55,760 nucleotides of DNA from positions 1-55,760 of the forward strand of contig JBNJHD010000004.1 in NCBI GenBank assembly GCA_051819805.1. Reading direction: 5' to 3'. This DNA is from Nanobdellota archaeon. Its GTDB lineage: Archaea > Nanobdellota > Nanobdellia > Woesearchaeales > SKGA01. Positions 3,610-39,592 of this stretch are shown here, piece after piece (positions within the stretch are counted from its first letter, which is position 1; every line of letters begins with the position of its first letter). The notes beneath the pieces were generated by a model. It made no database searches, was not told the DNA's origin, and saw only the letters and a list, made by a program, of their open reading frames with translations. A program made the translations under genes and the position numbers.

Positions 3610-6237
3610 CTAATTCTCTTCTTTCAATTTCGCATGAGCAGCTGCAAGACGCGCAATAGGCACACGATAAGGAGAACAACTGACGTAATTCAATCCAGTC
3701 CTATGGCAAAATTCCACGCTTGATGGTTCGCCGCCATGCTCGCCACAGATGCCTACTTTGAGATTCTTATTGACACTACGACCTTTCTTCACACCCATCT
3801 CAACGAGCTGTCCGACACCAGTCTGATCGAGCACCTGGAACGGATCGTACTCGAGTAAGCCTTTATCGATGTATTGCGGCACGAACGTGCCGACATCATC
3901 GCGTGAGAAGCCGAGTGTCATCTGCGTGAGATCGTTCGTTCCGAAGCTGAAAAACTCCGCTGATTCAGCGACCTTATCTGCAGTGAGCGCTGCACGAGGC
4001 ACTTCGATCATCGTTCCGATCTTATAGCTCACAACATCACTTGAAGAGATAGTCTCCTCAGCGATCGTTTTCACGATATCTTTCTGGTTGTCGAATTCTT
4101 TGACATTCCCTATGAGAGGAATCATTACTTCCACTTCAATCGTGTTGCCATCAGCTGCTACTTCCTGTGCTGCTTCAAAGATAGCAACGGACTGCATCTC
4201 GGTGATTTCCGGATAGGTGATACCGAGCCGGCAGCCACGATGTCCGAGCATAGGGTTGACTTCCTCAAGTTTTTCGATGAGTTCATGGATCTTTTTCTCG
4301 CTCACTCCCTGCTCGTGTGCCATCTGCTTGATATCCTCTTTCTCTTTTGGCATGAACTCGTGAAGCGGTGGATCGAGCAGTCGTATCGTGATCGGCTTTC
4401 CCTTCATGATCTCGAAGAGTTGCTTGAAGTCATCTTTCTGGAATGGCTTGATCTTGTCAAGAGCAGCTTTCCGTTTCTCCTTAGTATCTGACAGGATCAT
4501 CTCACGAACCGCTTTGATGCGTTCTCCTTCAAAGAACATGTGTTCAGTCCGGCACAATCCGATACCTTCCGCTCCGAACTCGAGCGCTTTCTTCGCGTCC
4601 CGTGGCGTTTCTGCGTTGGTTCTCACCTTCATGGTCCTGTGCTTGTCAGCCCACTCCATGATCTTCGCGAATGAACCTGAGAGGTCAGGATCGACTGTCG
4701 GCACTTGTCCTTCATAGACTGTTCCTTCAGTTCCATCAAGACTCAAGTAGTCTCCTTCGTTGAATGTCTTTCCATCGAAGGTCACTGTCTTAGCAGACTC
4801 ATCGACTTGCGCGTCACCGCATCCTGAGATGCAGCATTTTCCCATACCTCGAGCGACGACTGCCGCGTGGCTTGTCATGCCGCCTTTCGCTGTAAGTATT
4901 CCTTTTGCAGCATCCATTCCGATGAGGTCTTCAGGGCTCGTATCGTTTCTGACGAGAATGACATTCTCCCCTGCTTCTTTCATCTTCACAGCCGCATCGT
5001 TTGAGAACGCTATCTTTCCCACTGCGGCTCCAGGGCTTGCCGGCAAGCCTTTACCGAGTGTCTTATGCTTGTCTTTAGCCACCTTGTCGAGTTGTTGGTG
5101 AAGGAGCTGATCGAGTGCTTTCGGATCGATGCGCAGCACTGCAGTCTTTTCATCGATAAGTCCTTCATCGACCATGTCTGCTGCAATCTTGACAGCCGCG
5201 TGCGCTGTCCGTTTCCCATTTCTGGTCTGGAGCATGTAAAGCGTTCCTTCTTGGATGGTGAACTCCATGTCCTGCATGTCCTTGTAGTGGCTCTCGAGAT
5301 TCTTGTAGATAGTAACCAATTGGTCATAGACTTCAGGCATCAGATCCTTGAGTGTGGATATCGGTTTTGGTGTACGTATTCCTGCAACGACATCCTCTCC
5401 TTGTGCGTCCATGAGGTATTCGCCGTAAAAGACGTTCTCCCCGGTTGATGGATCGCGTGTGAATGCCACTCCTGTCCCGCTTGTCTTGCCCATGTTTCCG
5501 AAGACCATCGCCTGCACGTTGACCGCTGTTCCTTTGAGTCCTGTGATGTTGTTGAGTCGTCGGTATGCGATCGCACGATCATTATTCCACGAGCCAAAGA
5601 CCGCATCGATCGCTTTGAAGAGTTGCTCGCGCGCATCTTGCGGGAATGGTTCTCCAGCATTCTCTTCGATGATCGTCTTGAATTGCTTGACTGCGTTTTT
5701 CAGATCATCGACATCAAGATCCTTATCGAACTGCACTCCTTTTGTCTCTTTGATCTGTTCAAGGACGTGTTCGAACTTGCTTGCCTTGACTTCGAGAACG
5801 ACATCTCCGAACATCTGCAGTAGTCGTCTGTATGAGTCCCATGCGAATCGTTCATTGCCTGACTTTTCTGCCAGTCCTTTGACGACCTCATCGTTGAGCC
5901 CGAGGTTGAGGATCGTATCCATCATCCCCGGCATCGATTGTGCAGCTCCGCTTCGCACAGAGAGAAGTAGCGGTTCGCTCCTGCTACCGAGACTTGCTTT
6001 CATCTCCCCCTCGAGTGTCTTGAGATGATCGAGAATCTCGCTTCTGGTTTCTTCAGGTAGCGTGTTGTTGTTATTGTTGTATTCTTCACAGGTTTCCGTG
6101 GTGATCGTGAATCCAGACGGTACTGGAACGCCGATGTTTGCCATCTCTGCTAAGTTTGCGCCTTTGCCGCCAAGAAGACTTTTCAATTCCCGTCTTCCTT
6201 CTGTCTTATTGTTGCCGAAAAAATAGACGTGTTTCAT
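3610..6237 (-). CDS. ppdK: Pyruvate, phosphate dikinase
   Basis: LLGGKGANLAEM, SVRSGA, GGMTSHAAVVAR (phospho-His), FSFGTNDLTQ, GICGEHGG. Confidence 0.97.
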   Translation of the reverse strand: MKHVYFFGNNKTEGRRELKSLLGGKGANLAEMANIGVPVPSGFTITTETCEEYNNNNNTLPEETRSEILDHLKTLEGEMKASLGSRSEPLLLSVRSGAAQSMPGMMDTILNLGLNDEVVKGLAEKSGNERFAWDSYRRLLQMFGDVVLEVKASKFEHVLEQIKETKGVQFDKDLDVDDLKNAVKQFKTIIEENAGEPFPQDAREQLFKAIDAVFGSWNNDRAIAYRRLNNITGLKGTAVNVQAMVFGNMGKTSGTGVAFTRDPSTGENVFYGEYLMDAQGEDVVAGIRTPKPISTLKDLMPEVYDQLVTIYKNLESHYKDMQDMEFTIQEGTLYMLQTRNGKRTAHAAVKIAADMVDEGLIDEKTAVLRIDPKALDQLLHQQLDKVAKDKHKTLGKGLPASPGAAVGKIAFSNDAAVKMKEAGENVILVRNDTSPEDLIGMDAAKGILTAKGGMTSHAAVVARGMGKCCISGCGDAQVDESAKTVTFDGKTFNEGDYLSLDGTEGTVYEGQVPTVDPDLSGSFAKIMEWADKHRTMKVRTNAETPRDAKKALEFGAEGIGLCRTEHMFFEGERIKAVREMILSDTKEKRKAALDKIKPFQKDDFKQLFEIMKGKPITIRLLDPPLHEFMPKEKEDIKQMAHEQGVSEKKIHELIEKLEEVNPMLGHRGCRLGITYPEITEMQSVAIFEAAQEVAADGNTIEVEVMIPLIGNVKEFDNQKDIVKTIAEETISSSDVVSYKIGTMIEVPRAALTADKVAESAEFFSFGTNDLTQMTLGFSRDDVGTFVPQYIDKGLLEYDPFQVLDQTGVGQLVEMGVKKGRSVNKNLKVGICGEHGGEPSSVEFCHRTGLNYVSCSPYRVPIARLAAAHAKLKEEN

Positions 6238-6502
6238 TCTATAATATACCCCTCACTATATACACATCACCTCCAATTCTCACTCTTTTATATGTGTTAT
6301 GGTGATGAGAATTGTGCTCGAAATGGACAAGACAGATATTACTTTAAGAGAATAGTATGAGAACAGTTGAGCGCGAGATGTAATAACTCCAGCATTATAG
6401 TGCGAGTGTTCGGATCAAGTTTCACTGTTGGATGCGATGAAAGATTCTGGCAACGTAAAACCACAACCTTTTATAAAAGAACGCTGCCTACCAGATAGTA
6501 TC

Positions 6503-7501
6503 ATGGGAGACTTACCCTTCGAACGCATGGACAGACAAGTGCTTGTCAGACAGGAATCAAAAACAAGTCTTGACTTCGGGAAATCACCTGACAATTACAC
6601 GATCAAAGAACTGCTTGAATGTGGCATTATCAATGTTGATAAGCCGAGCGGACCGACAAGCCATCAGGTGAGCGCGTTCGTCCAGAAGATTCTTGATATC
6701 GATAAGTCAGGCCATTCAGGAACGCTCGACCCTAAAGTCACAGGAGTCCTTCCTGTCGCTCTCGACAAGGGAACCCGTGTCGTCCAATCACTTCTCACGG
6801 CAGGTAAGGAGTATGTGTGTCTCATGCATCTCCATGAACCTTTTGATGAAACCAAGCTCAGGGAAGTCATCAAGAACCAGTTCACCGGTAAGATCAAGCA
6901 GATGCCACCAGCAAAGTCTGCTGTCAAGCGTCGTAATCGTTTCAGAAAAATCTATTATTTCGAGATTCTCGAGATCAAGAATCAGGATGTCCTGTTCAGA
7001 GTAGGCACACAGGCAGGAACGTATATCCGTAAGTTGTGTCATGACATAGGCGTTGCAATGGGATCAGGTGCTCACATGGCCGAGCTTCGTCGTACGAAGG
7101 CAGGACCATTTCAAGAGTCAGAAGAGTTGTGCACCTTGCAGGATCTCGCTGACGCGTATCATTATTATAAGGAAAACCAGGATGAGACAAAGCTCAAGAA
7201 GCTCATCCATCCTATCGAGTTCGGCGTCCGCCACTTGCCTAAAGTATGGGTGACCGACACGACTGTCAACACCTTGTGTAATGGTGCAAGCCTGAAAGTA
7301 CCTGGCATCGCTAAAGTGGAGAGTGACATCCAAGTCGGAGAGCCAGTCGCTATCATGACGCTGAAAAACGAGCTTATCAGCGTTGCTGAAAGCATGATGA
7401 TTTCTAAAGATATGGTGTCAAAAGATCGTGGCATGGCATGTAGACCCCAACAAGTGTTCATGAGACCTGGTTTGTATCCTAAGATCGAGAAGAAGAGTTG
7501 A
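6503..7501 (+). CDS. cbf5: H/ACA RNA-guided pseudouridine synthase Cbf5 (TruB family with PUA domain)
   Basis: DKPSGPTSHQV, GHSGTLDPKVTG, GTYIRKLCHD, C-terminal PUA domain. Confidence 0.95.
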   Translation: MGDLPFERMDRQVLVRQESKTSLDFGKSPDNYTIKELLECGIINVDKPSGPTSHQVSAFVQKILDIDKSGHSGTLDPKVTGVLPVALDKGTRVVQSLLTAGKEYVCLMHLHEPFDETKLREVIKNQFTGKIKQMPPAKSAVKRRNRFRKIYYFEILEIKNQDVLFRVGTQAGTYIRKLCHDIGVAMGSGAHMAELRRTKAGPFQESEELCTLQDLADAYHYYKENQDETKLKKLIHPIEFGVRHLPKVWVTDTTVNTLCNGASLKVPGIAKVESDIQVGEPVAIMTLKNELISVAESMMISKDMVSKDRGMACRPQQVFMRPGLYPKIEKKS

Positions 7502-7666
7502 TCATTTCCTAATAGATTTCTTTCAATATAAGATATTCTAGTTGAAAATATATACAAATAACGTTTCTAGAAAAAAGCATTCAAGAAGAAATGAGAACTA
7601 CCATTCAAGAATGTGCTAGACTAAAATAAATAAAGAAAATAAAAAAGAGTGGTTGTGCGTGCAACC

Positions 7667-10018
7667 TTATTTCTTAGCCGGAGGATGTGCCGCTCCGTAG
7701 ATGAGATATCCGATACCGACGAGAAGTCCTACGACAACCAAGATCAGTAGCACCATGTAGCCAGTGCTTGATCTGAAGTTAGAGAATGTCGAGACTTCTT
7801 CACCATAGACCGGATTCGGAACAGGCTGACCTGTAGCACCATCACTTCCATCATCAGGGTTAGTGACTACAACACCATTATCACTACCTTCGCCATCAGT
7901 ATAGTCGTCATCATCTCCGGAACCAGTTCCGCAGACGACATCCAGAGCGATCGTTTTCTCATCGGAAAGCTCGTCATCATCGTAATATACTTCAATATCT
8001 ACGAAGTACGCTCCTTCTCGGAGATCATCTGGAAGTGAAATAGTGACTGTTTCAGTCTCGTCATCCCCTTCATCTATTTCGATATCCCTGATTCGCTTGT
8101 ACCAATCCAGTTCTCCTTTTTTACTCACTATATTGAGCATCACTTCATCCTCATCGTTTTTACCGATATTTTTCATCGTGACTTCAAGATCGACTGTTCG
8201 GTCGTTACAATCAACAGGATCTCTTGAGAATTCCCAATCTTCAATGATGATTTCATGAGATTCTTTATCGATTTCCATATTGAATTCAAATTCATCATAG
8301 TGTTCAAAACCATGATCCCCATCATCAGCAAATGCTTCGATGATGATTCGTGAATCTTCTTCATCAGCATCGTCAGGGACAGTGAAAGTCACTTCAAAGG
8401 TTTCATCATCATCTTCTTTGATATCTTTCTCTGAAGATTCTTCATCAATCTCCCAATCTTCATCATCATAGACTTGGAAGAACGCATCTTCGAGTTCGAT
8501 ATCATCAGACGAACTATACCTATTCTCAAGCGTGACTGTAAGAATCACTGTATCTCCTATTTTCACATCAAGGTCTTCGCCATCACTGACAGTTTCATCA
8601 TCACCATCTATTTCAGCAACGACTTTATCGATCTTGAGCATGCTTTGCGCTTGCATGAGCACATCAATAGTATCTGTGACAGTAACAACATCACCTTGAG
8701 CAGCAACCTTGACTCGACCTATTTCTTTCTCACGAGCACTCGCATCAGCAGGTATGGTAAGCGTGACACTGACAGTAGTTGATTCTCCTGGAGCTAGTGA
8801 TGTTGCACTCGTGAATATTGAAGCTTCGTAATCCTCGTCCAGTTCAGAACCTGAAGTGCTTACTACTTCCACATCAATTCCAGTGATGGTTTGTGAACCA
8901 GTGTTTTCAAGAGTAAGATACTCAGTATATGTATCTCCCCGGTCAGCATTGGAGCCACCGAAAGTGACAGTATCAGAATCAAACTCAATATTTGGAACAT
9001 CTCTTTTTACCTCTACATCAAAAGATGCTTGAGTAGTAGAGTATCCGTCACTCACATTGACAGAGATTGTTTCAGTAGAGATAGCTGTCGGCATCCATCC
9101 GCTCAAGAGTCCCTCACTGCTCATCGCAAGACCTTCAGGTCCGGAGACAAGTGTGTATACGAGTTCTTGTCCTTCAGGATCATTAGAGACTGCAGCCACA
9201 TCATATGTGAATTCTTCTCCAATAACAACAACTTGGTTTTCAACATTGACAACTGGAGCTTCATTCGTGAGTTCTACAGTAATGTCTCCAATGTCAGTCA
9301 CTTCATCACTATTATCAAGATTGACTACCTGAAGAGTTCCAGTGTATGTTCCTGGTGTTTGTGAAGCATCAGTGGCCACAGTAACTTTCACATCATCATA
9401 TGTCATTCCTTTGCTTAAAGGAATTGTTGATGAAGGAAATACTGCATTGCTCATATCAATAGTTTCTGATTCTCCTTCAAGAGTAAGGTCAGTCGCTTGC
9501 AGTTGAATATCTGCATTGAGATCGCCAGTGTTTGACACGCTTCCGGATTGCATTTCTGCTTCTCCAGGATACATTGATAATGAATAGTCAGTTCCAGAGA
9601 ACGCGTATTCAAGAGCATGAACAGCGACGATGGAAAAACCCTCATCATTTGTCGCATTTGCATCGTCAGCTCCGTTTACGGTTATCTTGAACGTGTAATC
9701 ACCTTCAGAACTATAGGTGTGTGTCTGGAAGATGTATGTTTGATCATTCTCGTCAAGTGGAGGTAAAGGAACTGAAGAATACGTTCCATCTCCGAATGAG
9801 ATGTTCAGATGGTCATCCGCACCTGGAGAGACAGTCTCGTTTCCGATATTTCGGATAGTCGCGTTGAATCGGATTGATTCTCCGACTGTAGGATCAACAG
9901 TCTCTACATTGACCGAATCCACTGCCAAATCCCAATAGCCTAGTGCAAGACCAGGAACGAGCAGTGTGAAAAGCACCATTAATGGTAAAATTTTTGATGT
10001 CATTGTTTTCAACCTCAT
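7667..10018 (-). CDS. Acidic cell-surface/S-layer-like protein with CARDB/Ig-like repeats and a C-terminal membrane anchor
   Basis: Signal peptide; repeated (V/L)xNxG beta-sandwich motifs; cadherin-like DPEGQELVY..VSDG unit; very D/E-rich; C-terminal TM helix. Confidence 0.75.
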   Translation of the reverse strand: MRLKTMTSKILPLMVLFTLLVPGLALGYWDLAVDSVNVETVDPTVGESIRFNATIRNIGNETVSPGADDHLNISFGDGTYSSVPLPPLDENDQTYIFQTHTYSSEGDYTFKITVNGADDANATNDEGFSIVAVHALEYAFSGTDYSLSMYPGEAEMQSGSVSNTGDLNADIQLQATDLTLEGESETIDMSNAVFPSSTIPLSKGMTYDDVKVTVATDASQTPGTYTGTLQVVNLDNSDEVTDIGDITVELTNEAPVVNVENQVVVIGEEFTYDVAAVSNDPEGQELVYTLVSGPEGLAMSSEGLLSGWMPTAISTETISVNVSDGYSTTQASFDVEVKRDVPNIEFDSDTVTFGGSNADRGDTYTEYLTLENTGSQTITGIDVEVVSTSGSELDEDYEASIFTSATSLAPGESTTVSVTLTIPADASAREKEIGRVKVAAQGDVVTVTDTIDVLMQAQSMLKIDKVVAEIDGDDETVSDGEDLDVKIGDTVILTVTLENRYSSSDDIELEDAFFQVYDDEDWEIDEESSEKDIKEDDDETFEVTFTVPDDADEEDSRIIIEAFADDGDHGFEHYDEFEFNMEIDKESHEIIIEDWEFSRDPVDCNDRTVDLEVTMKNIGKNDEDEVMLNIVSKKGELDWYKRIRDIEIDEGDDETETVTISLPDDLREGAYFVDIEVYYDDDELSDEKTIALDVVCGTGSGDDDDYTDGEGSDNGVVVTNPDDGSDGATGQPVPNPVYGEEVSTFSNFRSSTGYMVLLILVVVGLLVGIGYLIYGAAHPPAKK

Positions 10019-10050
10019 TGTTGGTTTTTTCTCACATTACCTTAGTAATA

Positions 10051-11532
10051 TTATTTGTTGAGGAGCTTCTTCGTGATATCTTGAGCTCCGTATTGGATTT
10101 TCATGAAGTACATTCCGTCAGTGAAGTCTTTTGTGAAGTCAACATTCATCTTACCGTTATTGACCATATGTGATCCGTTATAGACTTGTTGTCCTTGGAT
10201 GTTGTACATGCTGACAGTGACCATTTTTCTAGAAACGGTCGGATCATTGAAATCAACGTGCACTTTATCCTTGAAAGGATTCGGATAGACATTCGCTTCA
10301 AGTCCGTCAGGATGATCCGGAAGCGCATCATCAATGTCTGTCGATTGGTCAAGAACGTAGGTAAGCACAGTATCGCTTGCTAGTGTCACTGTATCAGCGA
10401 CCGGTTCAAAATCATCGTTTGTGATGTTGAATATCCGTTCAATAGAATCTTGTGACGTAATCGCTTCATAGCGGAACGTGCCATTTGCAGTGGAATCATC
10501 TTGTATAGTATCACCATTCATTGCAGTGATGATATAACGTGCATCAATTGGATTACCATCATGATCCATCACCTGTCCTGTTACTTCAAAGACATTGATA
10601 TCTGGTAGTGAATCAAGTCTCAGATCAACTGTATCTTGTTCTCCAGGAGTGAAATTGAATAGTGTGTCACGAGTCTGGTAGGCATTACCCGATGCGATAA
10701 AATTGATAGGAACCTCATTAGTATCAGTCTCATAGACTATCGTCGTATCTCCTGCTTGTGAAAAGAATGTATTGAGGATAGTGTCATTTTTTGCAGTATT
10801 GATCCCTAGAATATTTGTCCCTTCATTAAATGCGATCGGAATCGTATATGAGTAAGGGTCAAGATCGCCGTTGCCTGTCGTATCGATATATGCGTTGAAT
10901 TTCAGCGTGTCAAGATCAGAAAGAGTCATTGTTTTCATCGTATCAAGACCTAATCCCTCATTATGGATTCGCATAGTGAATTCTTCAGAAGACCCTTCCG
11001 TGACGTAGTCAGTGAGCCATTCTTTCGTTGAATCAACAGTCGTATTCCGGATAACCCCACCATCGAGAAGCACGCTCGCTTGGGATCCTTCGTTTGCGGT
11101 CGCTTGGAACACATAAGTACTGATATCAGATGATCCTTCTGTGAAACTATCTAGGAACCTTCTTGTGCTATCCATGACTTCTTGCTCTTCATCAGTATAT
11201 CCTACATTGATATATTGACTTTTCTCTCCAAGATTGAGTGTTGTGTCAGTATTTCCGAAGACAATGTAATTTGCCCTGTCAGGAGCATCATCTTTGAATG
11301 CATAAAAGTTCTCCTTATCATTGTCAACATAGGACGAATTGAGAAGGACTAATCCTTCAGGTAGTTGTGATAGTTGTTCTGTCTGCATGCTGTCAGGCAG
11401 GTAACCTAGATTCTTCATGCTCTGGATAGTAACGTCATTTTGAGAAAGTGCTGATCCAGCAACGAATCCTCCAAATAGTGTCAAGAAAGCATTTTGCGCA
11501 AATTTTTTTATTGAGTGTTTCATTGTATCCAT
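10051..11532 (-). CDS. Secreted protein with T9SS type A (Por secretion) C-terminal sorting domain
   Basis: C-terminus NVYPNPFKD...MYNIQGQQV...DGMYFMKI...TKKLL; N-terminal signal peptide ending ALS|Q. Confidence 0.8.
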   Translation of the reverse strand: MDTMKHSIKKFAQNAFLTLFGGFVAGSALSQNDVTIQSMKNLGYLPDSMQTEQLSQLPEGLVLLNSSYVDNDKENFYAFKDDAPDRANYIVFGNTDTTLNLGEKSQYINVGYTDEEQEVMDSTRRFLDSFTEGSSDISTYVFQATANEGSQASVLLDGGVIRNTTVDSTKEWLTDYVTEGSSEEFTMRIHNEGLGLDTMKTMTLSDLDTLKFNAYIDTTGNGDLDPYSYTIPIAFNEGTNILGINTAKNDTILNTFFSQAGDTTIVYETDTNEVPINFIASGNAYQTRDTLFNFTPGEQDTVDLRLDSLPDINVFEVTGQVMDHDGNPIDARYIITAMNGDTIQDDSTANGTFRYEAITSQDSIERIFNITNDDFEPVADTVTLASDTVLTYVLDQSTDIDDALPDHPDGLEANVYPNPFKDKVHVDFNDPTVSRKMVTVSMYNIQGQQVYNGSHMVNNGKMNVDFTKDFTDGMYFMKIQYGAQDITKKLLNK

Positions 11533-11739
11533 TCAACCCCCTTTGTATCGATACATAGTGGAAAATATTGTTTGTTATCACTTTGAAGTGAAGTTTATTA
11601 TATAAATGTTTCTTTTTCAGACTACTCTTCAGATACGGCAATTCATATTTTTAACTGCAATAGTGCATATGAATATATATAAACCTGCCCATATACCATG
11701 CAAGCGATCTCATCAGAAATGCAGGATTAAACTATAAAA

Positions 11740-11809
11740 GGACCTGTCCAGAAAGGAACATATTTCTATTATCGATCAAGCAGTAGTGTAAATCATTCTG
11801 GATACAACC
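11740..11809. mobile_element. Degenerate short relative of the 163-bp MITE (ends only)
   Basis: Left end GGACCTGTCCAGAAAGGAA and right end CATTCTGGATACAACC match the MITE termini with 2-3 mismatches; no clean TSD. Confidence 0.45.
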
Positions 11810-11896
11810 ATAAAAAGCAAAACTTTAAAAATGAATGAAAAGTATATCGGTATAGATTTTCCTAAACTGAGATACATAATTAATAGGTGAACACGT

Positions 11897-13036
11897 ATGA
11901 GCCAAGATATGAATACACTCACAGAAACATTGTTCAATAGCGGACTTGCAGGGAGTCCTGGAGAGGCCCGTCGCATGGCAGAAGAAATGCTTTCCACAAG
12001 CAAGAAAGTAGCAGAATCTTCTGAAGAGAACCAACAGACGAATTTTGCGGTAAAGCGATACAAGCGTCCTGAAAAAAAACCAGAAGAGAGAACAGCAGAA
12101 CAACAACCTACAGACAATGAGACCGCAGGATATTCTTCATCACTTGATCCTCAAAAGCGTGAATCATACAATAAAGAGTTCCGTGACAGAGCATTATCAA
12201 ACAGACCTATTGATGTACAGGTCGAATTTGACACTCCTCGCCGAAACGCTGAAGCGACAAAAAATAAATATCTTGAAACACAAAATGCTGAAAAGTATAA
12301 ACAACAATTCCAAGCAAGCGACATTCCCGACACTCATTCCGAATACAAATCCCCTGAAACAAGCAGAGCGCCAAACAGTGAAGATCAATCAATAGATAGG
12401 ATGAACACAACAGCAGAGCAGTTCACAGATCACAGTGCAGCAGAGCAGACTCAAGAGCACAATGCAGCAGAGCAGAAAGTAGCGCACAGTGAAACTGAAG
12501 AACCCACACCTCAATTCTCGAACCAGACATTCTCTACAGGAAGCCTTCTCGATCAGGCAATCCGCAGAGTTGAAAGTTCGAAATCCTCAGACAGCATAAG
12601 TCCTGAAGAGTATTCCAGCAAGAATATAGAAGAAGAGAACACCAGCGATCCAGTGCAACAGCCAGAACACAGCACAACAGACAACCATCCACAGTTTTCC
12701 GAACACACTACAGCAGAACAAACTTCAAATCTTTCTTCAAACGCCTTCTTCCCGGATAAAAACAGTGAAGCAGAAAATAATATACAGGACACGGATTTCA
12801 AGTCCCAATTCACTGCATCCAGTCCTCAGATGACAGCACCGCAGAACCAGCATCACAGTACAACCGACTCTAACGCTCACACCCCTGAAAATCAGGATGC
12901 GAATACTGAATCCTTATCTTCAGATGCTAAATCCCAATCCCGTACAAGTGGTCAGCGAAGAGAGATGACTGAAGAAGAGAAAAAGCAGCAAGAAGAAGTG
13001 GATTTGACAAAACACTTCAACTTCTCGAACAATTGA
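11897..13036 (+). CDS. Hypothetical, largely disordered S/T/Q/E-rich protein with short structured ends
   Basis: 379-aa ORF; AGGTGA RBS; N-terminal LFNSGLAGS..EA..MAE and C-terminal VDLTKHFNF. Confidence 0.8.
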   Translation: MSQDMNTLTETLFNSGLAGSPGEARRMAEEMLSTSKKVAESSEENQQTNFAVKRYKRPEKKPEERTAEQQPTDNETAGYSSSLDPQKRESYNKEFRDRALSNRPIDVQVEFDTPRRNAEATKNKYLETQNAEKYKQQFQASDIPDTHSEYKSPETSRAPNSEDQSIDRMNTTAEQFTDHSAAEQTQEHNAAEQKVAHSETEEPTPQFSNQTFSTGSLLDQAIRRVESSKSSDSISPEEYSSKNIEEENTSDPVQQPEHSTTDNHPQFSEHTTAEQTSNLSSNAFFPDKNSEAENNIQDTDFKSQFTASSPQMTAPQNQHHSTTDSNAHTPENQDANTESLSSDAKSQSRTSGQRREMTEEEKKQQEEVDLTKHFNFSNN

Positions 13037-13656: not shown

Positions 13657-13944
13657 TTATTTAGGAATCTTTTCAAGAACAATCTCTATAGTCGAGACAT
13701 GAACATCTTTTCCTTCCTTATTCTTGAACTCTTCAGAATCAATAGTGATATCTTTCACACGGATCTGATCTTTAAGAAACCGTTTGAGCGCAATCTCGGA
13801 GACATCAACTGCTCGACTTATGAATTTTCCCCTTGCCTTGACAAACACTTCATCCGCTCCTTTCGTCGTGAACTGGATAACGACACCAGTAACATAATTC
13901 ATGAACGGTTTTGTACCAACAAAAATAGAGTTATCCTTTTCCAT
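13657..13944 (-). CDS. albA: DNA/RNA-binding protein Alba
   Basis: IFVGTKPFMNYV, KARGKFISRAVDV, VSTIEIVL. Confidence 0.95.
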   Translation of the reverse strand: MEKDNSIFVGTKPFMNYVTGVVIQFTTKGADEVFVKARGKFISRAVDVSEIALKRFLKDQIRVKDITIDSEEFKNKEGKDVHVSTIEIVLEKIPK

Positions 13945-14005
13945 CACTTATCACTCCTTGAGTTGTTTCTTGAACACTTACTCCAGAAAAACAAAGTAAC
14001 AAAAA

Positions 14006-14206
14006 TCAGACTTCATCACGAAGATCCCTTATTTTCATTCGTGTAGTATATCCTGCTACAACATTTCGAATCTTCTTGGAAGCACCATCTTCTACTTCTT
14101 TGATGATTTCCTTGTTTTTCGTGAAGTCGGTCGTGAACCGATCCTTGTATTTCTGGTATACTTCAGCTGTTAATGCTTTGATGAGTTTTGTCTTGATTCG
14201 TCCCAT
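14006..14206 (-). CDS. rps17e: 30S ribosomal protein eS17
   Basis: MGRIKT..IK, FTTDF..NK, SKKIRN.VAGY.TR. Confidence 0.95.
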   Translation of the reverse strand: MGRIKTKLIKALTAEVYQKYKDRFTTDFTKNKEIIKEVEDGASKKIRNVVAGYTTRMKIRDLRDEV

Positions 14207-24929: not shown

Positions 24930-25361
24930 ATGGCATCGTCAAGACCTTCTTGGAAGAGTTCCTTTCGCAAAGCGAGTACAGGATTCACGAAGTCACTTCC
25001 CATCATCATCGGCGTTATCTTTCTTATCGGACTTTTTCAGACTCTCATCACAAAGCAGATGATTCTCTCTGTTTTTTCAGGAAGCGAGCTGACTAATATC
25101 CTCATAGGAAGCTTGTCAGGAAGCGTTCTTGCAGGAAATCCTATCACGAGTTATGTCATCGGTGGTGAGCTCCAGAATCAAGGAGTAGGACTTCTTGCCA
25201 TCACTGCATTCCTTGTCTCATGGACGACTGTCGGTCTCGTTCAGTTCCCTGCTGAAAGCAAGATCCTTGGCAAGCGCTTTGCGACATATCGTAACATCTC
25301 ATCATTTATTCTTTCATTCATTGTCGCTCTGGTGACTGTGTTGGTGGTGGGATTGTTATGA
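24930..25361 (+). CDS. Predicted permease (DUF318/ArsP-like half)
   Basis: 4 TM helices; GSVLAGNPITSY..GG.L, SWTTVG.VQ.PAE...LG..FA..RN. Confidence 0.8.
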   Translation: MASSRPSWKSSFRKASTGFTKSLPIIIGVIFLIGLFQTLITKQMILSVFSGSELTNILIGSLSGSVLAGNPITSYVIGGELQNQGVGLLAITAFLVSWTTVGLVQFPAESKILGKRFATYRNISSFILSFIVALVTVLVVGLL

Positions 25362-25879
25362 AACAGCAACAGAAGAACCAATCTTGGAAGCCTTGGATAT
25401 TCCCTCTTTCAGTCATCATGGTCTATGGCATCATCAGCTTGTTCAACAGTAAGCTCATCACATCCAGTCTTAGCAAGACAGGCACAATCTTCTGGAACTT
25501 GCTTCCTGCATTTATCCTCGTCATCATCCTCATGGGAGTGACAAACAAGTTCCTCGATCAGAAACGTCTGGCAAGGATTCTCGGTCGCCATTCAGGAGTA
25601 AAAGGAACTCTTGTTGCTATCGGAGCAGGCATCATCTCTTCAGGAGCTATTTATATGTGGTATCCATGGCTTGCTGATTTGCAACAGAAAGGAGCTTCGT
25701 GGAGTCATATCAGTATGTTCCTCTATAACCGTGCTGTCAAGATTCCCTTATTGCCAGTCATGATATCATATTTCGGCACTGTATTCGTTATCGTTCTCAT
25801 GGTCGTGATGATTGCAGCTTCCATCCTGCAAGGTCATATTATTGAAGCGATTCTTGCCAAGGAGACATCCTCACAATGA
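25358..25879 (+). CDS. Predicted permease (DUF318/ArsP-like half)
   Basis: LG..SG.KG, GIISSG.IYMWYP.L..L..KG, FLYNRAVKIP; ATGA overlap with upstream gene. Confidence 0.8.
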   Translation: MKQQQKNQSWKPWIFPLSVIMVYGIISLFNSKLITSSLSKTGTIFWNLLPAFILVIILMGVTNKFLDQKRLARILGRHSGVKGTLVAIGAGIISSGAIYMWYPWLADLQQKGASWSHISMFLYNRAVKIPLLPVMISYFGTVFVIVLMVVMIAASILQGHIIEAILAKETSSQ

Positions 25880-34217: not shown

Positions 34218-36737
34218 TCACTCATTCAGAATCTCAAGAACAAGTTCATAGACTTCAGGGTATTCTTCGGGCTTGACCAGTCTTGTATGCATCGTATCCT
34301 CAAAAAAGCTATCAGGACAAGAGCCATTGACAAGATAGTTCGTCGCGAAGTCCAGCGGCACGTTCTCAGCGAGTATTACTCCATCGCCATCCCTACCATC
34401 ATCCATTTCACAACCACTCCCTCTGATCGTATACACTTCAGTTCCTGAAATACCATCTTGCTGAGCTGCATTGAGTCGTCGTAGGAACAAACTACCTGTT
34501 CCCATATCCTCACATTCCTTTGATGCCCCTGTAACTGAACAGTATTTATTTACAGAACCTTCAATACCGTAATTCGGCGTTCCTATCATCACAAGCGTAT
34601 CCACATCCTCCGAGCCGAAAAGTCGCAAGTATTCTCTTGACACAAGCCCCCCCATTGAGTGGGAGATGATAATGACTTTATCACTACTGGATCTGTATTT
34701 GACGAGATCAACGAGTTCCTTGAGTCGCAGGGCGTAATTCTCTATCCTTTCAGTCTTTTGTGTGACGATAGCACTATCACCAATATCAAAATGAGACATG
34801 TAATAATAGCTCACCCTTACACTAATCGGAGTATCGACTCGTCCCCAATCATTTTCAGGTATAGTGAACAATTCTGATTCGTCAGCGATTTCTCCTGCAT
34901 TGATGTATCCTTCATCCTGGAGCGCATCCTGCATCTGCGAGAATGCTATCAATGAGAGTTCTGGACTGTTGTACTTGCTTAAAGCATGGCCGTGGACGAA
35001 TATAATAGGATGATTGTTCTCACAATTCCCGTTAGCATCACAGCAGGTCGTGCAATCATTTTTAAAGCAGCACCGTGGTTCGTTTTCAGGAACCATTTGA
35101 GGTAGAGAAGAAGAGACAGTGACATTTTCCACCATTACTGGTTTGTACGAATCGATAATAATCTCGTGTAAGAATCCATCATCATAAGTATAATTACTCG
35201 TGCAATAGTAGAGTTGATGTTCGGGAATGAGTCGTGATCCATCGAGCAGGCAGAGCCGTTCAAACTCCTTATCAGTGATTGTTGAATAGTTGAACACGCC
35301 ATAACCGTCAATTGTTATGTTCTCATAACTCTCATTGAGCTCGAAATTCTCAGTTGTTCCGTTGGTGACATCGAGATACAAATGATCCTGATAGTATGTA
35401 CAGACCTCTTCGGTTACGGTCGTATTATCGAGATATGGTCTTGTGGTGGTTTGATAATGCACTGCATCCAAGTTATGCTTTTCCATCGCTTTAACGAGTT
35501 CTTGTTGAGCACCGCAGACGTTTGATAGATTACTCGTGTCAAAAGTCAGTTCTTGTGCGAGCGTTGAATTGTATTCTTCGATAACATCAAGTGCGATAAT
35601 GTTTGTTGTGTTGATTCGTTTCAGGAAATGATTCTTTCTCTGCGTATGATTAGTGAGAAAATCTTCGACCTGCGATAAATGCGAAGAGAGATTATCAGAA
35701 AAATCTTCAAGCGTTCCTACTTTACCATCTAGCGGTGCTGTTGCCAGTCTCGTGACATTGCGTTTCAGCACGAGTCCGTTGTTATACATTGATGAATTGA
35801 GCGATTTCTTATAGAACGTCTGCACTTCGTTGAACAAGACATCCTTATCGTGTAAGTAATCTAGCAGCTTGATGCTCTGATTCCATTTTGAAGTGATATA
35901 ATAAAGGGTAGTTTTGAGATCATCAGCTTCTCGCGAGAGTGTTGCTGTCTGAGTTGCTAGTTCCATATTCTTCTGTGGACTGATATCAAGGTAGCGCTCA
36001 TGCTCCCAAAGTTCAAGTGTTGAGATGATGTTGTTCAAGAATTCAGCGTGAACACGTTCTACTTGATCGCTTGTGTTCTGCAGTTGTTCTAGTTCAGAAG
36101 GCGTTTCGTGTTCCAGTTGTTCAGAGATATCTATAGAGAGTATTCTCGCTTGTTCAAGGATTGTGAGAACGACACTTTCTTCATCAATGGCTTGTTGTAG
36201 AACCGGAAGAATAGATTTTTTCCATAGTTGTTCTTCTTCGCTAAGATTATAATTGACAATTACAAGGGATGTTTTCCGATATATCTTTTCTGAAGACCTG
36301 CATAAATCAGTTTTTTTACTCTGACAACTGACTTGGAATTGATAGATCTTCTGCCCACTACCATATTCTGGAGTGGGAAGATCATATGTGGATTTATGAT
36401 GTTGAGGATCAGTAGTGTTCCTTGTTTCAATCACTTGTCCAGTTGAGAGATCAATGAATTGGTGTCTACAGTAAGCTTTACACACTACAGGTGTATCGGC
36501 AGTATATGTGAATGTCACAGACGAGGTATCATCATTGACTATAGAGTATGAATTCTCAGAAGGATCCATATCAAGATTCATCTCTTCATTGAAGATGAAG
36601 TGGACTTTCAGTCCGAAAACTAAGTATATGGCCAGTAATAGCATAATTACCCCTACAATACAAAACAATATTTTCTTCACACGCTTCGCAGAGGAATTTT
36701 TCTTCTTGGTTTTTTTGGTCTTCGTGATAATACCCAC
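34218..36737 (-). CDS. Membrane-anchored protein with long stalk and C-terminal alpha/beta hydrolase (lipase/PGAP1-like)
   Basis: Basic N-terminus plus one TM; helical middle; CCxxxxCxxCC linker; IIFVHGH, ISHSMGG, IGTPNYG, DGVI, late His. Confidence 0.82.
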   Translation of the reverse strand: MGIITKTKKTKKKNSSAKRVKKILFCIVGVIMLLLAIYLVFGLKVHFIFNEEMNLDMDPSENSYSIVNDDTSSVTFTYTADTPVVCKAYCRHQFIDLSTGQVIETRNTTDPQHHKSTYDLPTPEYGSGQKIYQFQVSCQSKKTDLCRSSEKIYRKTSLVIVNYNLSEEEQLWKKSILPVLQQAIDEESVVLTILEQARILSIDISEQLEHETPSELEQLQNTSDQVERVHAEFLNNIISTLELWEHERYLDISPQKNMELATQTATLSREADDLKTTLYYITSKWNQSIKLLDYLHDKDVLFNEVQTFYKKSLNSSMYNNGLVLKRNVTRLATAPLDGKVGTLEDFSDNLSSHLSQVEDFLTNHTQRKNHFLKRINTTNIIALDVIEEYNSTLAQELTFDTSNLSNVCGAQQELVKAMEKHNLDAVHYQTTTRPYLDNTTVTEEVCTYYQDHLYLDVTNGTTENFELNESYENITIDGYGVFNYSTITDKEFERLCLLDGSRLIPEHQLYYCTSNYTYDDGFLHEIIIDSYKPVMVENVTVSSSLPQMVPENEPRCCFKNDCTTCCDANGNCENNHPIIFVHGHALSKYNSPELSLIAFSQMQDALQDEGYINAGEIADESELFTIPENDWGRVDTPISVRVSYYYMSHFDIGDSAIVTQKTERIENYALRLKELVDLVKYRSSSDKVIIISHSMGGLVSREYLRLFGSEDVDTLVMIGTPNYGIEGSVNKYCSVTGASKECEDMGTGSLFLRRLNAAQQDGISGTEVYTIRGSGCEMDDGRDGDGVILAENVPLDFATNYLVNGSCPDSFFEDTMHTRLVKPEEYPEVYELVLEILNE

Positions 36738-37090: not shown

Positions 37091-39592
37091 TCAATCAATG
37101 ATCGGTTTGATAAGAGACTCTCTTCCATCTTGATATTCGACAGGATCAGGAATATTTTTCATTACAGCAACGTATCCTTGCTGATATAGTGCTGCAAGAA
37201 GACAGTAATCAGTACTGTTATTTTTGAAAGCACTATCATAAGTGCAACTATTTTCCAATCTACAATCAGGAAGTTCATCAGAATCACATTTATCAAAAAG
37301 AAGACCCGGCTCCCAAGCGGCAGGAAGAGGAATTTCTAGCATGAAAAATGTTATCGAATCATTGTTATAAACATCTTCTTCAGTAAGAGTGAAGTTAAAC
37401 GTATTCGCTCCTTGAAGCCATGTAGTGAAATTTTGTTCAGGATATGTGACATCGTCAGTTTCGTATTCCTCAATATGAATCAGGTCATTATATAAGAGAG
37501 TCAAATCAACAGTGTAGTTTCCCGGAACAAACTGCATAGTATGCGATTGCAATTTATCTAATTCTTCTTCGGAAGTATTCACCAAGTCTTGTTTAGCGTA
37601 GTCAATGCTTTCCTTAGCTAGATTCAGTTCATCATCGGATACTTTCCCTTCCAAGTACGATTGTTCAAGATGTCCATCTACATCTTCTCCAAGCGTGTTT
37701 AATGACTGGTTCATGTTTGCAAATGCTGAAGAATTCTGTCCGACAAACTGTGCAAAACCAACAACTGGAACAGGAGTCTCGTATGCAGAGGTAGGTTGTC
37801 GTTTAACTGAAAAGAATGCTGTTTGTGATGGGTTCAGAGCACTAGCAGCAGTTTGGTAATTCAACATGAAATTCTGTGGATCATTCTCCAATTGAGAAAC
37901 ATTATGCGGAGATCTTACTTTCAGATAAAGCTCTTTTTCTTCTAGGGGCCAAAGACTAACTTCGAATTCTTCATTAAGACCATCATCTCGGTTGTTATAC
38001 TGTATGGAAGTTCCCATATAACCGAATTTTTTGAACGTTATAAAACCACCGAACTGACAGTAAGGGAATCTGTCAGTCAATACTGCATCATTATTTTCGA
38101 AAGTAGTTGCGCCAATATCGTATTCATCACCACAAGTATAGCTTACCGAAACTCCTTCAAGAGGCTCCCCAGTTCTTTTGTCAAAAGACTTTATTGTTAT
38201 GTTCTGTTTTGGTCTAAGATCATAACTTCCGATATTACTTTGGAATTCAACAGGATAAGATGGTTGAGTGAAATTCCTGTATGCAATCTGATTATCACGT
38301 ATGTTCACTTCTAAAGCGAACTGAAAAGTATATCCGTTACCATTGAATGCTTCAGGATCCTCAATTTCTATAACTATAGGATAACTGACATCGTATGAGA
38401 ATCTATAATCTTTCATGACAAAACTAATAATATCCATGAATAGATTAAGCATATCCTGCACTCCACCTTCACCATCACCTTCAGGAACTAATTTTTTTCC
38501 TTGTATGAGTTGGTCACCATCATCGATCATCAGGTGGATTGGTGAAAAAGTATATTTGTGGAACACATTAAAAGAGTAACTTGTTTTTGAAGGTGCGAAT
38601 AAGAATCCTTTGTAGATTCCTTGAACGTAGGGATTATAAGAATCAGAATCATTTTTCTTATTGATAGTCATTGGATTATTCGAATTCGCGACAGACATGA
38701 GCATCATATAAGGAAGAACTTCATTTTCCATCAAGAGTTTGACATTCTCATGTATCCAAACAGGATTTTTTCTATCGACAATCATCAATTCAGAAGTAGG
38801 AGGTAACTGTTGATCAAGTCCAGAATACATATTGATGAGATCCAATGTTTTTCCTTCATAGATGTTGTGTTCTCGTTCATAAGCTACAATCTCATCAGCC
38901 AGTCTATACATATTTACGAGATCAACATCGAAACTCGCCCTGAATCGTTCGACTTCTTTTTTGTTTCCTTCTTGAGTGAGTGAACGAATCTCGATAGGAT
39001 AGTTAAGGACAAAGTCAGTTTTTCCATTGGCAAGAATCACATTGACTTCAGGTTCTCCATTCTCTTCGATTTCATACATCTCAAGAGAGGAGAAACCATC
39101 AATACAAGTACCTATATTATCAAGTACAAAAGATTCAAGGTTCTCTTCAACACTCGATGAAGACGTCCTTGAACGAGGCATATAATTACACGTTTTAGAG
39201 ATGGAATCACACAAACCCGGTTGTTCTGTCGCGTCGCAACCTGATGGGGAGGAACATTGATCATCGGTCAAGTGTCGCCAGTAAGGTACTGAGAACGGAG
39301 TATAATCAACTGCTTCTCCTTTGTGCGCAGGATAGCTTACCTCTAGAGGTTGCGTATATCCTCCTTGTTGTCCTACTTTGTATAGTGCTTCTTTAGCAGT
39401 TGAATCAAGGCATTGAGATACTAATTCGATAACAGGTCGTGCTTCAAGAGAGACATCCGGAACGTCAACTGCAGGTTTTTCACTTTGAATGTCCTGACTC
39501 AGGAAAATGAATAGTCCTACTCCTAGAAGCAGGATTGCTCCTATAATGACAAAAATTGTTATTTGACCTTTGTTGTGAAAATGTTGTTTCAT
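37091..39592 (-). CDS. Large protein with class III (type IV pilin-like) signal peptide
   Basis: NKG|QITIFVIIGAILLLGVGLFI, followed by V..CL...A..AL..VG.QGGY. Confidence 0.8.
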   Translation of the reverse strand: MKQHFHNKGQITIFVIIGAILLLGVGLFIFLSQDIQSEKPAVDVPDVSLEARPVIELVSQCLDSTAKEALYKVGQQGGYTQPLEVSYPAHKGEAVDYTPFSVPYWRHLTDDQCSSPSGCDATEQPGLCDSISKTCNYMPRSRTSSSSVEENLESFVLDNIGTCIDGFSSLEMYEIEENGEPEVNVILANGKTDFVLNYPIEIRSLTQEGNKKEVERFRASFDVDLVNMYRLADEIVAYEREHNIYEGKTLDLINMYSGLDQQLPPTSELMIVDRKNPVWIHENVKLLMENEVLPYMMLMSVANSNNPMTINKKNDSDSYNPYVQGIYKGFLFAPSKTSYSFNVFHKYTFSPIHLMIDDGDQLIQGKKLVPEGDGEGGVQDMLNLFMDIISFVMKDYRFSYDVSYPIVIEIEDPEAFNGNGYTFQFALEVNIRDNQIAYRNFTQPSYPVEFQSNIGSYDLRPKQNITIKSFDKRTGEPLEGVSVSYTCGDEYDIGATTFENNDAVLTDRFPYCQFGGFITFKKFGYMGTSIQYNNRDDGLNEEFEVSLWPLEEKELYLKVRSPHNVSQLENDPQNFMLNYQTAASALNPSQTAFFSVKRQPTSAYETPVPVVGFAQFVGQNSSAFANMNQSLNTLGEDVDGHLEQSYLEGKVSDDELNLAKESIDYAKQDLVNTSEEELDKLQSHTMQFVPGNYTVDLTLLYNDLIHIEEYETDDVTYPEQNFTTWLQGANTFNFTLTEEDVYNNDSITFFMLEIPLPAAWEPGLLFDKCDSDELPDCRLENSCTYDSAFKNNSTDYCLLAALYQQGYVAVMKNIPDPVEYQDGRESLIKPIID

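Follow-up and report, generated by a model that had tools for sequence, protein, structure and literature searches.

A type A T9SS C-terminal domain on a variable protein encoded upstream of an S-layer-like gene in a woesearchaeal archaeon

The type A C-terminal domain (CTD) belonging to Bacteroidota's type IX secretion system (T9SS) is covered by reviews of that system (PMC5445135; PMC10202324), the second of which describes five motifs for it, A to E. Examples with which a new domain can be compared include FspA, NucA and RemA of Flavobacterium johnsoniae (8glj, 8glk and 8gl6), mirolase of Tannerella forsythia (8qb1), and RgpB, PorU and PorZ of Porphyromonas gingivalis. Genes of the T9SS are stated to be absent from archaea in one published account (PMC11285876). 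Here we describe an archaeal gene whose product ends in such a domain, an open reading frame (ORF) on the minus strand of contig JBNJHD010000004.1, from a Nanobdellota archaeon of the order Woesearchaeales (assembly GCA_051819805.1). The window, meaning the whole stretch of DNA analysed, is this entire contig of 55,760 bases (C4), and the genome to which it belongs comprises 1,031,898 bases in 45 contigs and is 97.11% complete and 0.39% contaminated. This genome is referred to as G000 and its 13 congeners as G001-G013.

A described parallel is found in the surface layer (S-layer) glycoproteins TfsA and TfsB of T. forsythia, which likewise link a CTD to the building of a surface layer. According to the account in PMC10202324, it is those subunits that carry the CTD; the T9SS exports them, and in T9SS mutants they stay inside the cell. 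In the archaeon, by contrast, the S-layer-like protein appears to be anchored by a transmembrane helix and has no CTD, and the tail sits on an accessory protein encoded upstream. A second parallel concerns the start of the mature protein. In Bacteroidetes, a glutamine follows the signal-peptide junction in 71% of predicted signal-peptide proteins, averaged across species, and this Q-rule is presented as specific to that phylum (PMC5837995). Under the rule, signal peptidase I leaves the Gln at the new N-terminus, where glutaminyl cyclase cyclises it. Most woesearchaeal proteins with the tail domain also have Gln at the junction, whereas the rest of the archaeon's secretome does not obey the rule.

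Annotations of such domains in archaeal metagenome-assembled genomes probably exist in databases. Full-text searches, with subscription journals and supplements outside their reach, found no paper on T9SS in DPANN archaea or Woesearchaeota. New here are the slot in the S-layer operon with its promoter element, the presence/absence polymorphism of the gene in that slot, the survey of the order and phylum, and the link to the Gln junction. Our tentative reading, held at slightly less than even confidence, is that a domain of Bacteroidota ancestry has been domesticated as the docking module of a variable surface protein co-expressed with an S-layer-like protein.

The tail and the protein that carries it

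The gene and the parts of its product are arranged as follows.

10051-11532, minus strand: tail-bearing ORF, 493 residues; stop codon at 10051-10053, with three residues (LNK) between the end of Por_Secre_tail and the stop
11443..11532, minus strand: predicted Sec-type signal peptide, residues 1 to about 30 (MDTMKHSIKKFAQNAFLTLFGGFVAGSALS), with Gln31 next; assigned from sequence
10291..11442, minus strand: body, acidic and hypervariable, residues 31-414
10063..10290, minus strand: type A T9SS C-terminal domain (Por_Secre_tail), residues 415-490; assigned from hidden Markov models (HMMs), AlphaFold2 (AF2), Foldseek, phmmer and Atlas

The tail is a genuine type A T9SS CTD, as the first-pass annotation of this DNA had proposed. 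It passes the cut-offs of both family models, PF18962 (52.4 bits against 27; E 6.7e-14; residues 415-490, model positions 1-73 of 75) and TIGR04183 (42.7 bits against 23; E 4.1e-11), and falls under that of the type B model CHU_C (16.6 against 27). The Por_Secre_tail family search matched none of 14 control genomes. Every motif named in the first-pass annotation is present: TDID at residues 398-401, VYPNP at 415-419, YNxxGQxV as YNIQGQQV at 443-450, GxYFxKI as GMYFMKI at 473-479, TKKL at 487-490 (TKKLLNK, 487-493) and, at the other end of the protein, ALSQND at 28-33. We take VYPNP, GMYFMKI and TKKLLNK to be the type A letters B, D and E.

The final 109 residues were folded by AF2 with a 50-row alignment (A2), in which P33, P35 and G89 (alignment numbering) are invariant. 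The model is a seven-strand, immunoglobulin (Ig)-like beta-sandwich with a mean predicted local distance difference test (pLDDT) score of 88.4. Foldseek places it near the CTDs of mirolase (8qb1_A, template modelling (TM) score 0.76, root-mean-square deviation 2.2), of NucA in its translocon complex (8glk_D, TM score 0.80) and of FspA (8glj_D, TM score 0.79, 25% identity), all scores being target-normalised, and its matches at E up to 1e-2 also include 6za2 (PorU), 5m11 (PorZ) and 7pq4 (the RgpB CTD). The top match in the Protein Data Bank by sequence is again 8glj_D (phmmer, E 0.0044), and the tail scores 0.97 against PF18962 clusters in the Atlas. The fold as such is generic: in Foldseek, equally high scores go to DUF3244 and to a Haloferax S-layer protein's Ig domain (7ptp_A, rank 2); the latter match is compatible with a tail that packs among S-layer Ig domains. 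The archaeal tail thus resembles its Bacteroidota counterparts in both HMM scores, in YPNP, GxYF and a K-rich end, in lying at the very C-terminus of a protein with a predicted Sec signal peptide, and in its predicted seven-strand sandwich. It differs from them in being carried by an archaeon whose genome yielded no SprA, PorV, PorU or GldM, and in its tie to an S-layer-like operon.

Searches of the archaeon's own genome gave no match for SprA (TIGR04189), PorV (NF033710) or GldM (TIGR03517), with GldK, GldL and GldN not searched. No control genome was matched by the SprA or the GldM model, which leaves both negatives without a positive control. The one match of the PorU model NF033707 was to the tail of the tail-bearing protein itself. 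Five other tail-bearing genomes of the phylum (G033, assembled as one contig, G191, G488, G004 and G001) yielded no family-level PorV or SprA; G033 gave a 35-residue fragment of 25.9 bits against a cut-off of 250. With the limits just given for SprA and GldM, these searches agree with the first-pass annotation, which stated that archaea lack a T9SS. The envelope of DPANN archaea consists of one membrane and an S-layer. Since no T9SS core gene was found in the carrier archaeon, the tail is not readable there as an outer-membrane export or sortase signal.

The protein starts with a basic n-region and a hydrophobic core, and the residues that lead up to Gln31 are small, features recognised without a trained predictor. 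A Shine-Dalgarno-like GGGGG stands directly 5' of the ATG; a further ATG occurs at residue 4, where the database copy of the protein begins. A crude rule places cleavage between VAG and SALSQ, four residues before the site between ALS and Q of the first-pass annotation, a rule-based and uncertain assignment. This N-terminal stretch is the sole hydrophobic segment of the protein, which has a predicted isoelectric point of 4.13 and contains no Cys. A sequence scan detected neither a C-terminal hydrophobic segment nor a Cys lipobox, a difference from archaeosortase-type anchors (PGF-CTERM and kin). A search of the genome for the exosortase/archaeosortase family PF09721 yielded nothing, while the Methanocaldococcus jannaschii control gave a match. 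With no second hydrophobic segment, no Cys and no archaeosortase family, the tail is therefore, as judged from sequence, the only part of the protein that can be recognised as an anchor.

The body is an orphan. No relative of the first ~250 residues appeared in the word-index, Pfam or Atlas searches or among 1.84 billion representative proteins; the word-index search of the body returned only the self-match (one of 6253 candidates), and the Atlas search with residues 30-410 reached a top score of 0.76, under the useful level. Against Pfam at E up to 1, the body matched only YwpF (0.079) and CarboxypepD_reg (0.22), the latter a weak and non-significant hint to PF13620 at residues ~317-385. Its seven N-glycosylation sequons do not exceed the 6.6 +/- 2.2 expected, and a single-sequence AF2 model of the whole protein (pLDDT 34.3) is uninformative for the body. 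The search of the 1.84 billion representatives gave 227 matches at E up to 0.001. Among the 150 matches listed, all but the protein itself and one other (P0007) match the tail, the furthest upstream extension reaches residue 286, and the best identity is about 42%; none of the listed matches to other proteins goes beyond residue 255 towards the N-terminus. P0007, with LapA repeats (E 1.5e-6, 17 stretches), was discarded as one weak 30-bit alignment repeated across identical repeats. The ten best tail matches, two of which sit on a 4.38-Mb contig, do not allow a donor lineage to be named.

The Gln junction was assessed with two crude measures applied uniformly: a strict one, Gln at +1 after a small-x-small site, and the dipeptide [AGS]Q at the end of the hydrophobic core. 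Strict +1 Gln was found in 6/47 high-scoring candidates of the archaeon's own genome; with a relaxed rule, 14/163 own-genome candidates have it, against 8/24 domain proteins. The dipeptide occurs at the junction of 15 of the 23 woesearchaeal domain proteins, compared with 36 of 187 signal-peptide-like ORFs of the archaeon's own genome (Fisher p about 1e-5), a statistic weakened by the non-independence of kin, by a background that includes membrane proteins and shadow ORFs, and by 5/28 domain proteins without a call. Among the congener loci, 9/33 have it; five of these nine are internal-class domain proteins, which leaves 4/28, and it is present in none of the S-layer-like proteins scored in this set. 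The pairing of tail and post-signal Gln, first noticed in this one gene, is by these proportions no one-gene coincidence. That the two travel together suggests either that the gene ends came from Bacteroidetes or that a blocked N-terminus has been selected. Glu_cyclase_2 was not found in the archaeon's own genome by a search whose control matched 4/14 genomes; the M28-type cyclase was not searched.

A slot in front of the S-layer-like gene

Three further features of the minus strand define the setting of the tail-bearing gene.

7667..10018, minus strand: gene for an S-layer-like CARDB protein, 783 residues, co-oriented with and downstream of the tail-bearing gene; assigned from domain matches
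10019..10050, minus strand: spacer of 32 nt that separates the tail-bearing gene from the S-layer-like gene; sense strand without a T run
11573..11612, minus strand: promoter/operator-like element, 41-80 nt 5' of the tail-bearing ATG; putative role, from sequence and position

The first-pass annotation had described a co-oriented S-layer-like gene at a distance of 33 bp. Orientation and S-layer-like character stand, the latter by a partial match to the 'putative S-layer protein' model NF033506 that lies below its cut-off (83.2 against 110), and the gap is corrected to 32 nt. The protein has a signal peptide, Ig-like domains (a CARDB match of 42.9 bits plus other Ig-like matches), an acidic repeat region, a C-terminal transmembrane helix and a basic tail. 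The C-termini of this protein (window 7667-7870) and of its homologues share the pattern NP-x-YG ... F ... S-x-x-Y ahead of the helix and basic tail, which could represent either an anchoring signal not yet described or simply a transmembrane anchor.

The element upstream consists of a TATA-like TTTATATAA followed by the palindrome TTCACTT-CA-AAGTGA (perfect 6+6), which is found once in the archaeon's own genome. Of the bases at 11573-11619, 45/47 are identical in G008, where they stand directly 5' of the S-layer-like gene. In G001 and G013 the element, with 7-8 substitutions in 40 bases, stands 5' of the tail-bearing gene; in G009 and G003, diverged to the same degree, it stands 5' of the S-layer-like gene (copies outside the window: L123 7914-7953, L113 13620-13659, L115 6980-7019, L124 4230-4269 and L127 5009-5048). 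It is thus nearly unchanged between genomes whose S-layer-like proteins are just 33-59% identical. The element probably acts as a promoter, and the palindrome may be the operator for a regulator of the S-layer operon. Its place behind this conserved promoter-like element and ahead of the S-layer-like gene makes the tail-bearing gene very probably the first in the S-layer-like operon, and the two genes would be co-transcribed. Parts of both are represented, at at least 99% identity, among the contigs of metatranscriptome libraries from two studies, a coverage that is no proof of transcription as such libraries can contain DNA.

Homologues of the S-layer-like gene are present in 14/14 genomes of the genus, and 9/13 congeners have Por_Secre_tail matches at E up to 1e-3. 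Five of the 14 (G000, G001, G004, G012 and G013) carry a tail-bearing gene, coding for a protein with a signal peptide, at a distance of 12-35 nt 5' of the S-layer-like gene and on the same strand; G004 has two tandem pairs of tail-bearing and S-layer-like genes. The four complete tail copies of the congeners score 38.5-56.3 bits with PF18962. The genus tree was built from thermosome alone, a single gene with a midpoint root, pyruvate phosphate dikinase (PPDK) having been found in only five of the 14 genomes. On this tree the tail-bearing state appears in three parts of the genus, each adjoining kin in which the slot is empty: G000 groups with G008, G002 and G009 (support 100/100), G001 and G013 stand beside G003, and G004 and G012 lie near G006. 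Such scatter reflects either repeated loss or repeated recombination into one slot.

Most of the tail-bearing proteins of the genus can be aligned to one another only at their ends. The two copies in G004 (G004a and G004b) align over the final 91 residues alone (38% identity, E 1e-17); G004b and G012 share the tail (E 5e-6) and the first ~60 residues (E 1e-4); and the G000 protein matches the others through its tail alone (E 1e-3 to 2e-3), apart from a single weak match of its body with G004b (E 4e-4). The exception is the pair from G001 and G013, orthologues that align over their full length with 44-50% identity. A variable body with alignable ends is the pattern expected if both ends carry constant functions.

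Native context and distribution

Archaeal markers stand at most 3 kb from the tail-bearing gene on either side, with a further protein of note transcribed divergently from it.

6428-7501: Cbf5-type pseudouridine synthase, archaeal marker
11897..13036, plus strand: acidic protein of 379 residues, divergently transcribed; no Pfam family
13657-13947: Alba, archaeal marker
14006-14206: S17e, archaeal marker

The archaeal context recognised in the first-pass annotation is confirmed by Cbf5 on one side and by Alba and S17e on the other. More archaeal genes follow along the contig, namely L15e, S19e, L31e, L11, TFS, Rpo4, aEF-1beta, the archaeal CCA-adding enzyme and thermosome. The tail-bearing gene has a GC content of 0.407 (0.379 at third codon positions) and a codon-usage distance of 0.06, all within the spread of the 36 genes of the contig (0.028-0.242 for the codon-usage distance). 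A 250-base contig of an independent run (X1) spans 9858-10107 without difference, and the check for chimerism proposed in the first-pass annotation therefore gives misassembly no support. The same annotation had offered recent transfer from Bacteroidota as one explanation. This is contradicted by tails that are at most about 42% identical, by ordinary GC and codon use, and by a slot and promoter element common to congeners. The gene is native, neither a misassembly nor a recent transfer.

Por_Secre_tail domains extend well beyond the genus. At E up to 1e-4, they occur in 42/301 sampled genomes of the order (34 over the cut-off), representing 35/216 genera, and in 47/401 sampled genomes of the phylum (38 over the cut-off); the latter count includes the unpublished G427, itself under the cut-off, and is 46 without it. 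A positive genome has between 1 and 10 copies, in some cases arranged as tandem arrays, and a relative assembled as one contig carries four of the domains. Among 39 loci, the domain ends at most 14 residues from the stop in 22, is followed by more than 90 residues in 16, and runs off the contig end in one. Two arrays are worth recording: G238:C35 has three equal-score tail matches at 643-858, 3652-3867 and 6661-6876, exactly 3009 bases apart, and G488:C6 has five within 6 kb (3756-9263), with ten in the whole 0.8-Mb genome.

A second class of woesearchaeal proteins, represented by four complete ORFs that were scanned, has a CarboxypepD_reg domain and a FlgD_ig/Por_Secre_tail-like domain near the N-terminus of proteins of 519-789 residues. 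FlgD_ig scores above PF18962 in two of the four and PF18962 is under its cut-off in two, and by these scores the class represents a related Ig module and is not a proven CTD. Loci of this class are L008 235-1971, L102 28-2022, L103 415-1971 and L110 175-2541 (all on the minus strand), with more at L009, L010, L012, L086, L089, L094, L097 and L107. Their architecture runs from a signal peptide, mostly with a Gln junction, through CarboxypepD_reg and the FlgD_ig/Por_Secre_tail-like domain to a further 360-500 residues; an HExxH motif lies near the end of L089, L094 and L103. Presumably, the N-terminal part of these proteins resembles the start of the SusC-type proteins of Bacteroidetes.

Several neighbours in the window deserve mention in their own right. 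The 379-residue protein has a conserved N-terminus (…LAGSPGEARRMAEEM…) and C-terminus (…DVDLTKHFNFS…), and its homologues lie beside the cassette or beside the S-layer-like gene in at least eight congeners (G001, G013, G004, G008, G009, G010, G006 and G003). The region 11668-12831, within and beside this gene, is uncovered in all four sequencing runs, the DNA run included. The PPDK gene (3610-6237, minus strand), used as a query from the window, was found in G000, G008, G009, G002 and G007, and is an accessory gene of central metabolism that marks a subclade of the genus. Two overlapping plus-strand ORFs, 24930-25361 and 25358-25879, match the first and last parts of ArsP_1 'predicted permease', both under the cut-off, and may be a split or frameshifted permease gene. 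On the minus strand, two adjacent large ORFs (37091-39592, 833 residues; 39608-43438, 1276 residues) match no Pfam family at E up to 1e-5; the N-terminus of the larger is signal-peptide-like, and a PGAP1-like lipase-fold protein of 839 residues (34218-36737) adjoins the pair.

What the tail may do without a T9SS

In the reading that we prefer, the gene would encode a Sec-exported, acidic, fast-evolving surface protein whose final 80 residues form an Ig-like beta-sandwich descended from a Bacteroidota type A T9SS tail. Without a T9SS, such a tail could not act as an outer-membrane export signal and would have been domesticated. The gene would be the promoter-proximal member of an operon with a membrane-anchored S-layer-like protein, and the tail would dock the variable body non-covalently on the cell envelope, either on the S-layer-like protein or on its glycans. 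The body would then be an exchangeable and dispensable outer decoration, serving in adhesion or as a decoy. Docking, its partner and the role of the body are what we infer from this arrangement.

Several observations weigh against this reading. The slot is empty in six of the 14 genomes of the genus (G003, G006, G007, G008, G009 and G010; G002, G005 and G011 are not judgeable). These six include the nearest relative, G008, with an S-layer-like protein 59% identical, a thermosome 89% identical and a PPDK 90% identical to those of G000, which has the same gene order and just 344 bases in the slot. It follows that the genus can do without the tail-bearing protein and that the S-layer-like protein functions in its absence. 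A tblastn search of the empty slots found no remnant of the gene (best E 0.28). Outside the genus, the neighbours of 17 more tail-bearing genes were checked; three have an overlapping downstream signal-peptide gene, none of the 17 downstream neighbours was shown to be a CARDB S-layer-like gene, and the pairing with the S-layer-like gene may be genus-specific. The RNA-library contigs end at 10050, and in four runs none bridges the 32-nt spacer. Conservation of the tail could stem in part from a short time since common origin or from constraints of the fold. Finally, the kept Gln junction and the intact CTD motifs are likewise predicted if the tail engages the T9SS of a host, as considered below.

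The same absences could mean that the tail does nothing. The gene, or at least its ends, would then derive from a Bacteroidetes T9SS cargo gene, the tail being passively retained and functionless and the protein simply secreted. A dispensable cassette gene with the slot empty in 6/14 genomes, an orphan body, a Bacteroidetes-type Gln junction that travels with the domain as inherited baggage would, and the failure to find reader machinery all fit such a relic. We nevertheless regard it as unlikely: a useless end of 80 residues should be the first part to decay or be truncated, yet the tails still score 38-56 bits (52.4 here) though most body pairs are unalignable, and tail-bearing genes have been amplified in tandem in several small genomes, as with the ten matches in a 0.8-Mb genome.

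Alternatively, the protein might be released or displayed and its tail bind a ligand on another cell or a polymer, for instance a glycan or the surface of a host, instead of the envelope of the archaeon itself. Carbohydrate binding is frequent among Ig-like tails, the tail region of G012 touches the galactose-binding-domain model PF23623 (27.2 bits), and the second woesearchaeal class uses the related FlgD_ig/Por_Secre_tail-like fold near the N-terminus as a general module. A ligand, however, would be expected to be bound by the variable part of the protein, and the tail is the constant part; nor does target binding explain the link to the S-layer operon. We consider this reading no less doubtful than passive retention, and no more so.

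A third alternative, improbable in our view and without direct support here, is the mimic of the first-pass annotation, which invokes a Bacteroidota host. PorV and PorU act at the cell surface, and these surface T9SS proteins of the host, including the PorU sortase, would capture the tail and so fasten the symbiont to it. If that were true, capture by PorV and ligation by PorU would attach an episymbiont covalently to the lipopolysaccharide of its Bacteroidota host. In favour of such capture, the type A motifs, the C-terminal position and the Bacteroidetes-type Gln junction have all been retained, and the tail stays constant while the rest of the protein varies. Nothing here, however, ties the organism to a Bacteroidota partner; the hosts of cultivated DPANN archaea are, to our knowledge, all archaea. 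The cassette is missing from the closest congeners, and recognition by the T9SS normally begins in the periplasm, out of reach for a protein secreted by another cell. An artefact, with a chimeric contig or a bacterial fragment binned into the archaeal genome, can practically be dismissed: although the assembly has 45 contigs, this contig is 55,760 bases long with archaeal markers on both sides, the composition is native, the X1 contig covers the junction, the same arrangement recurs in four other genomes of the genus, and a one-contig relative carries four such domains.

The domestication that we favour would bear on how these domains are understood. The type A CTD is usually treated as the address label of one bacterial machine. 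Here, the label has been kept, amplified and placed in an archaeal S-layer operon, together with the Gln junction, in a lineage without the machine. For genome annotators, this means that the annotation 'T9SS sorting domain' does not imply a T9SS. The gene also suggests a flow of genes from Bacteroidetes to Woesearchaeales, a clue to the neighbours of these uncultivated cells, and the tail fold would have a second, T9SS-independent use, probably in docking proteins at the cell surface.

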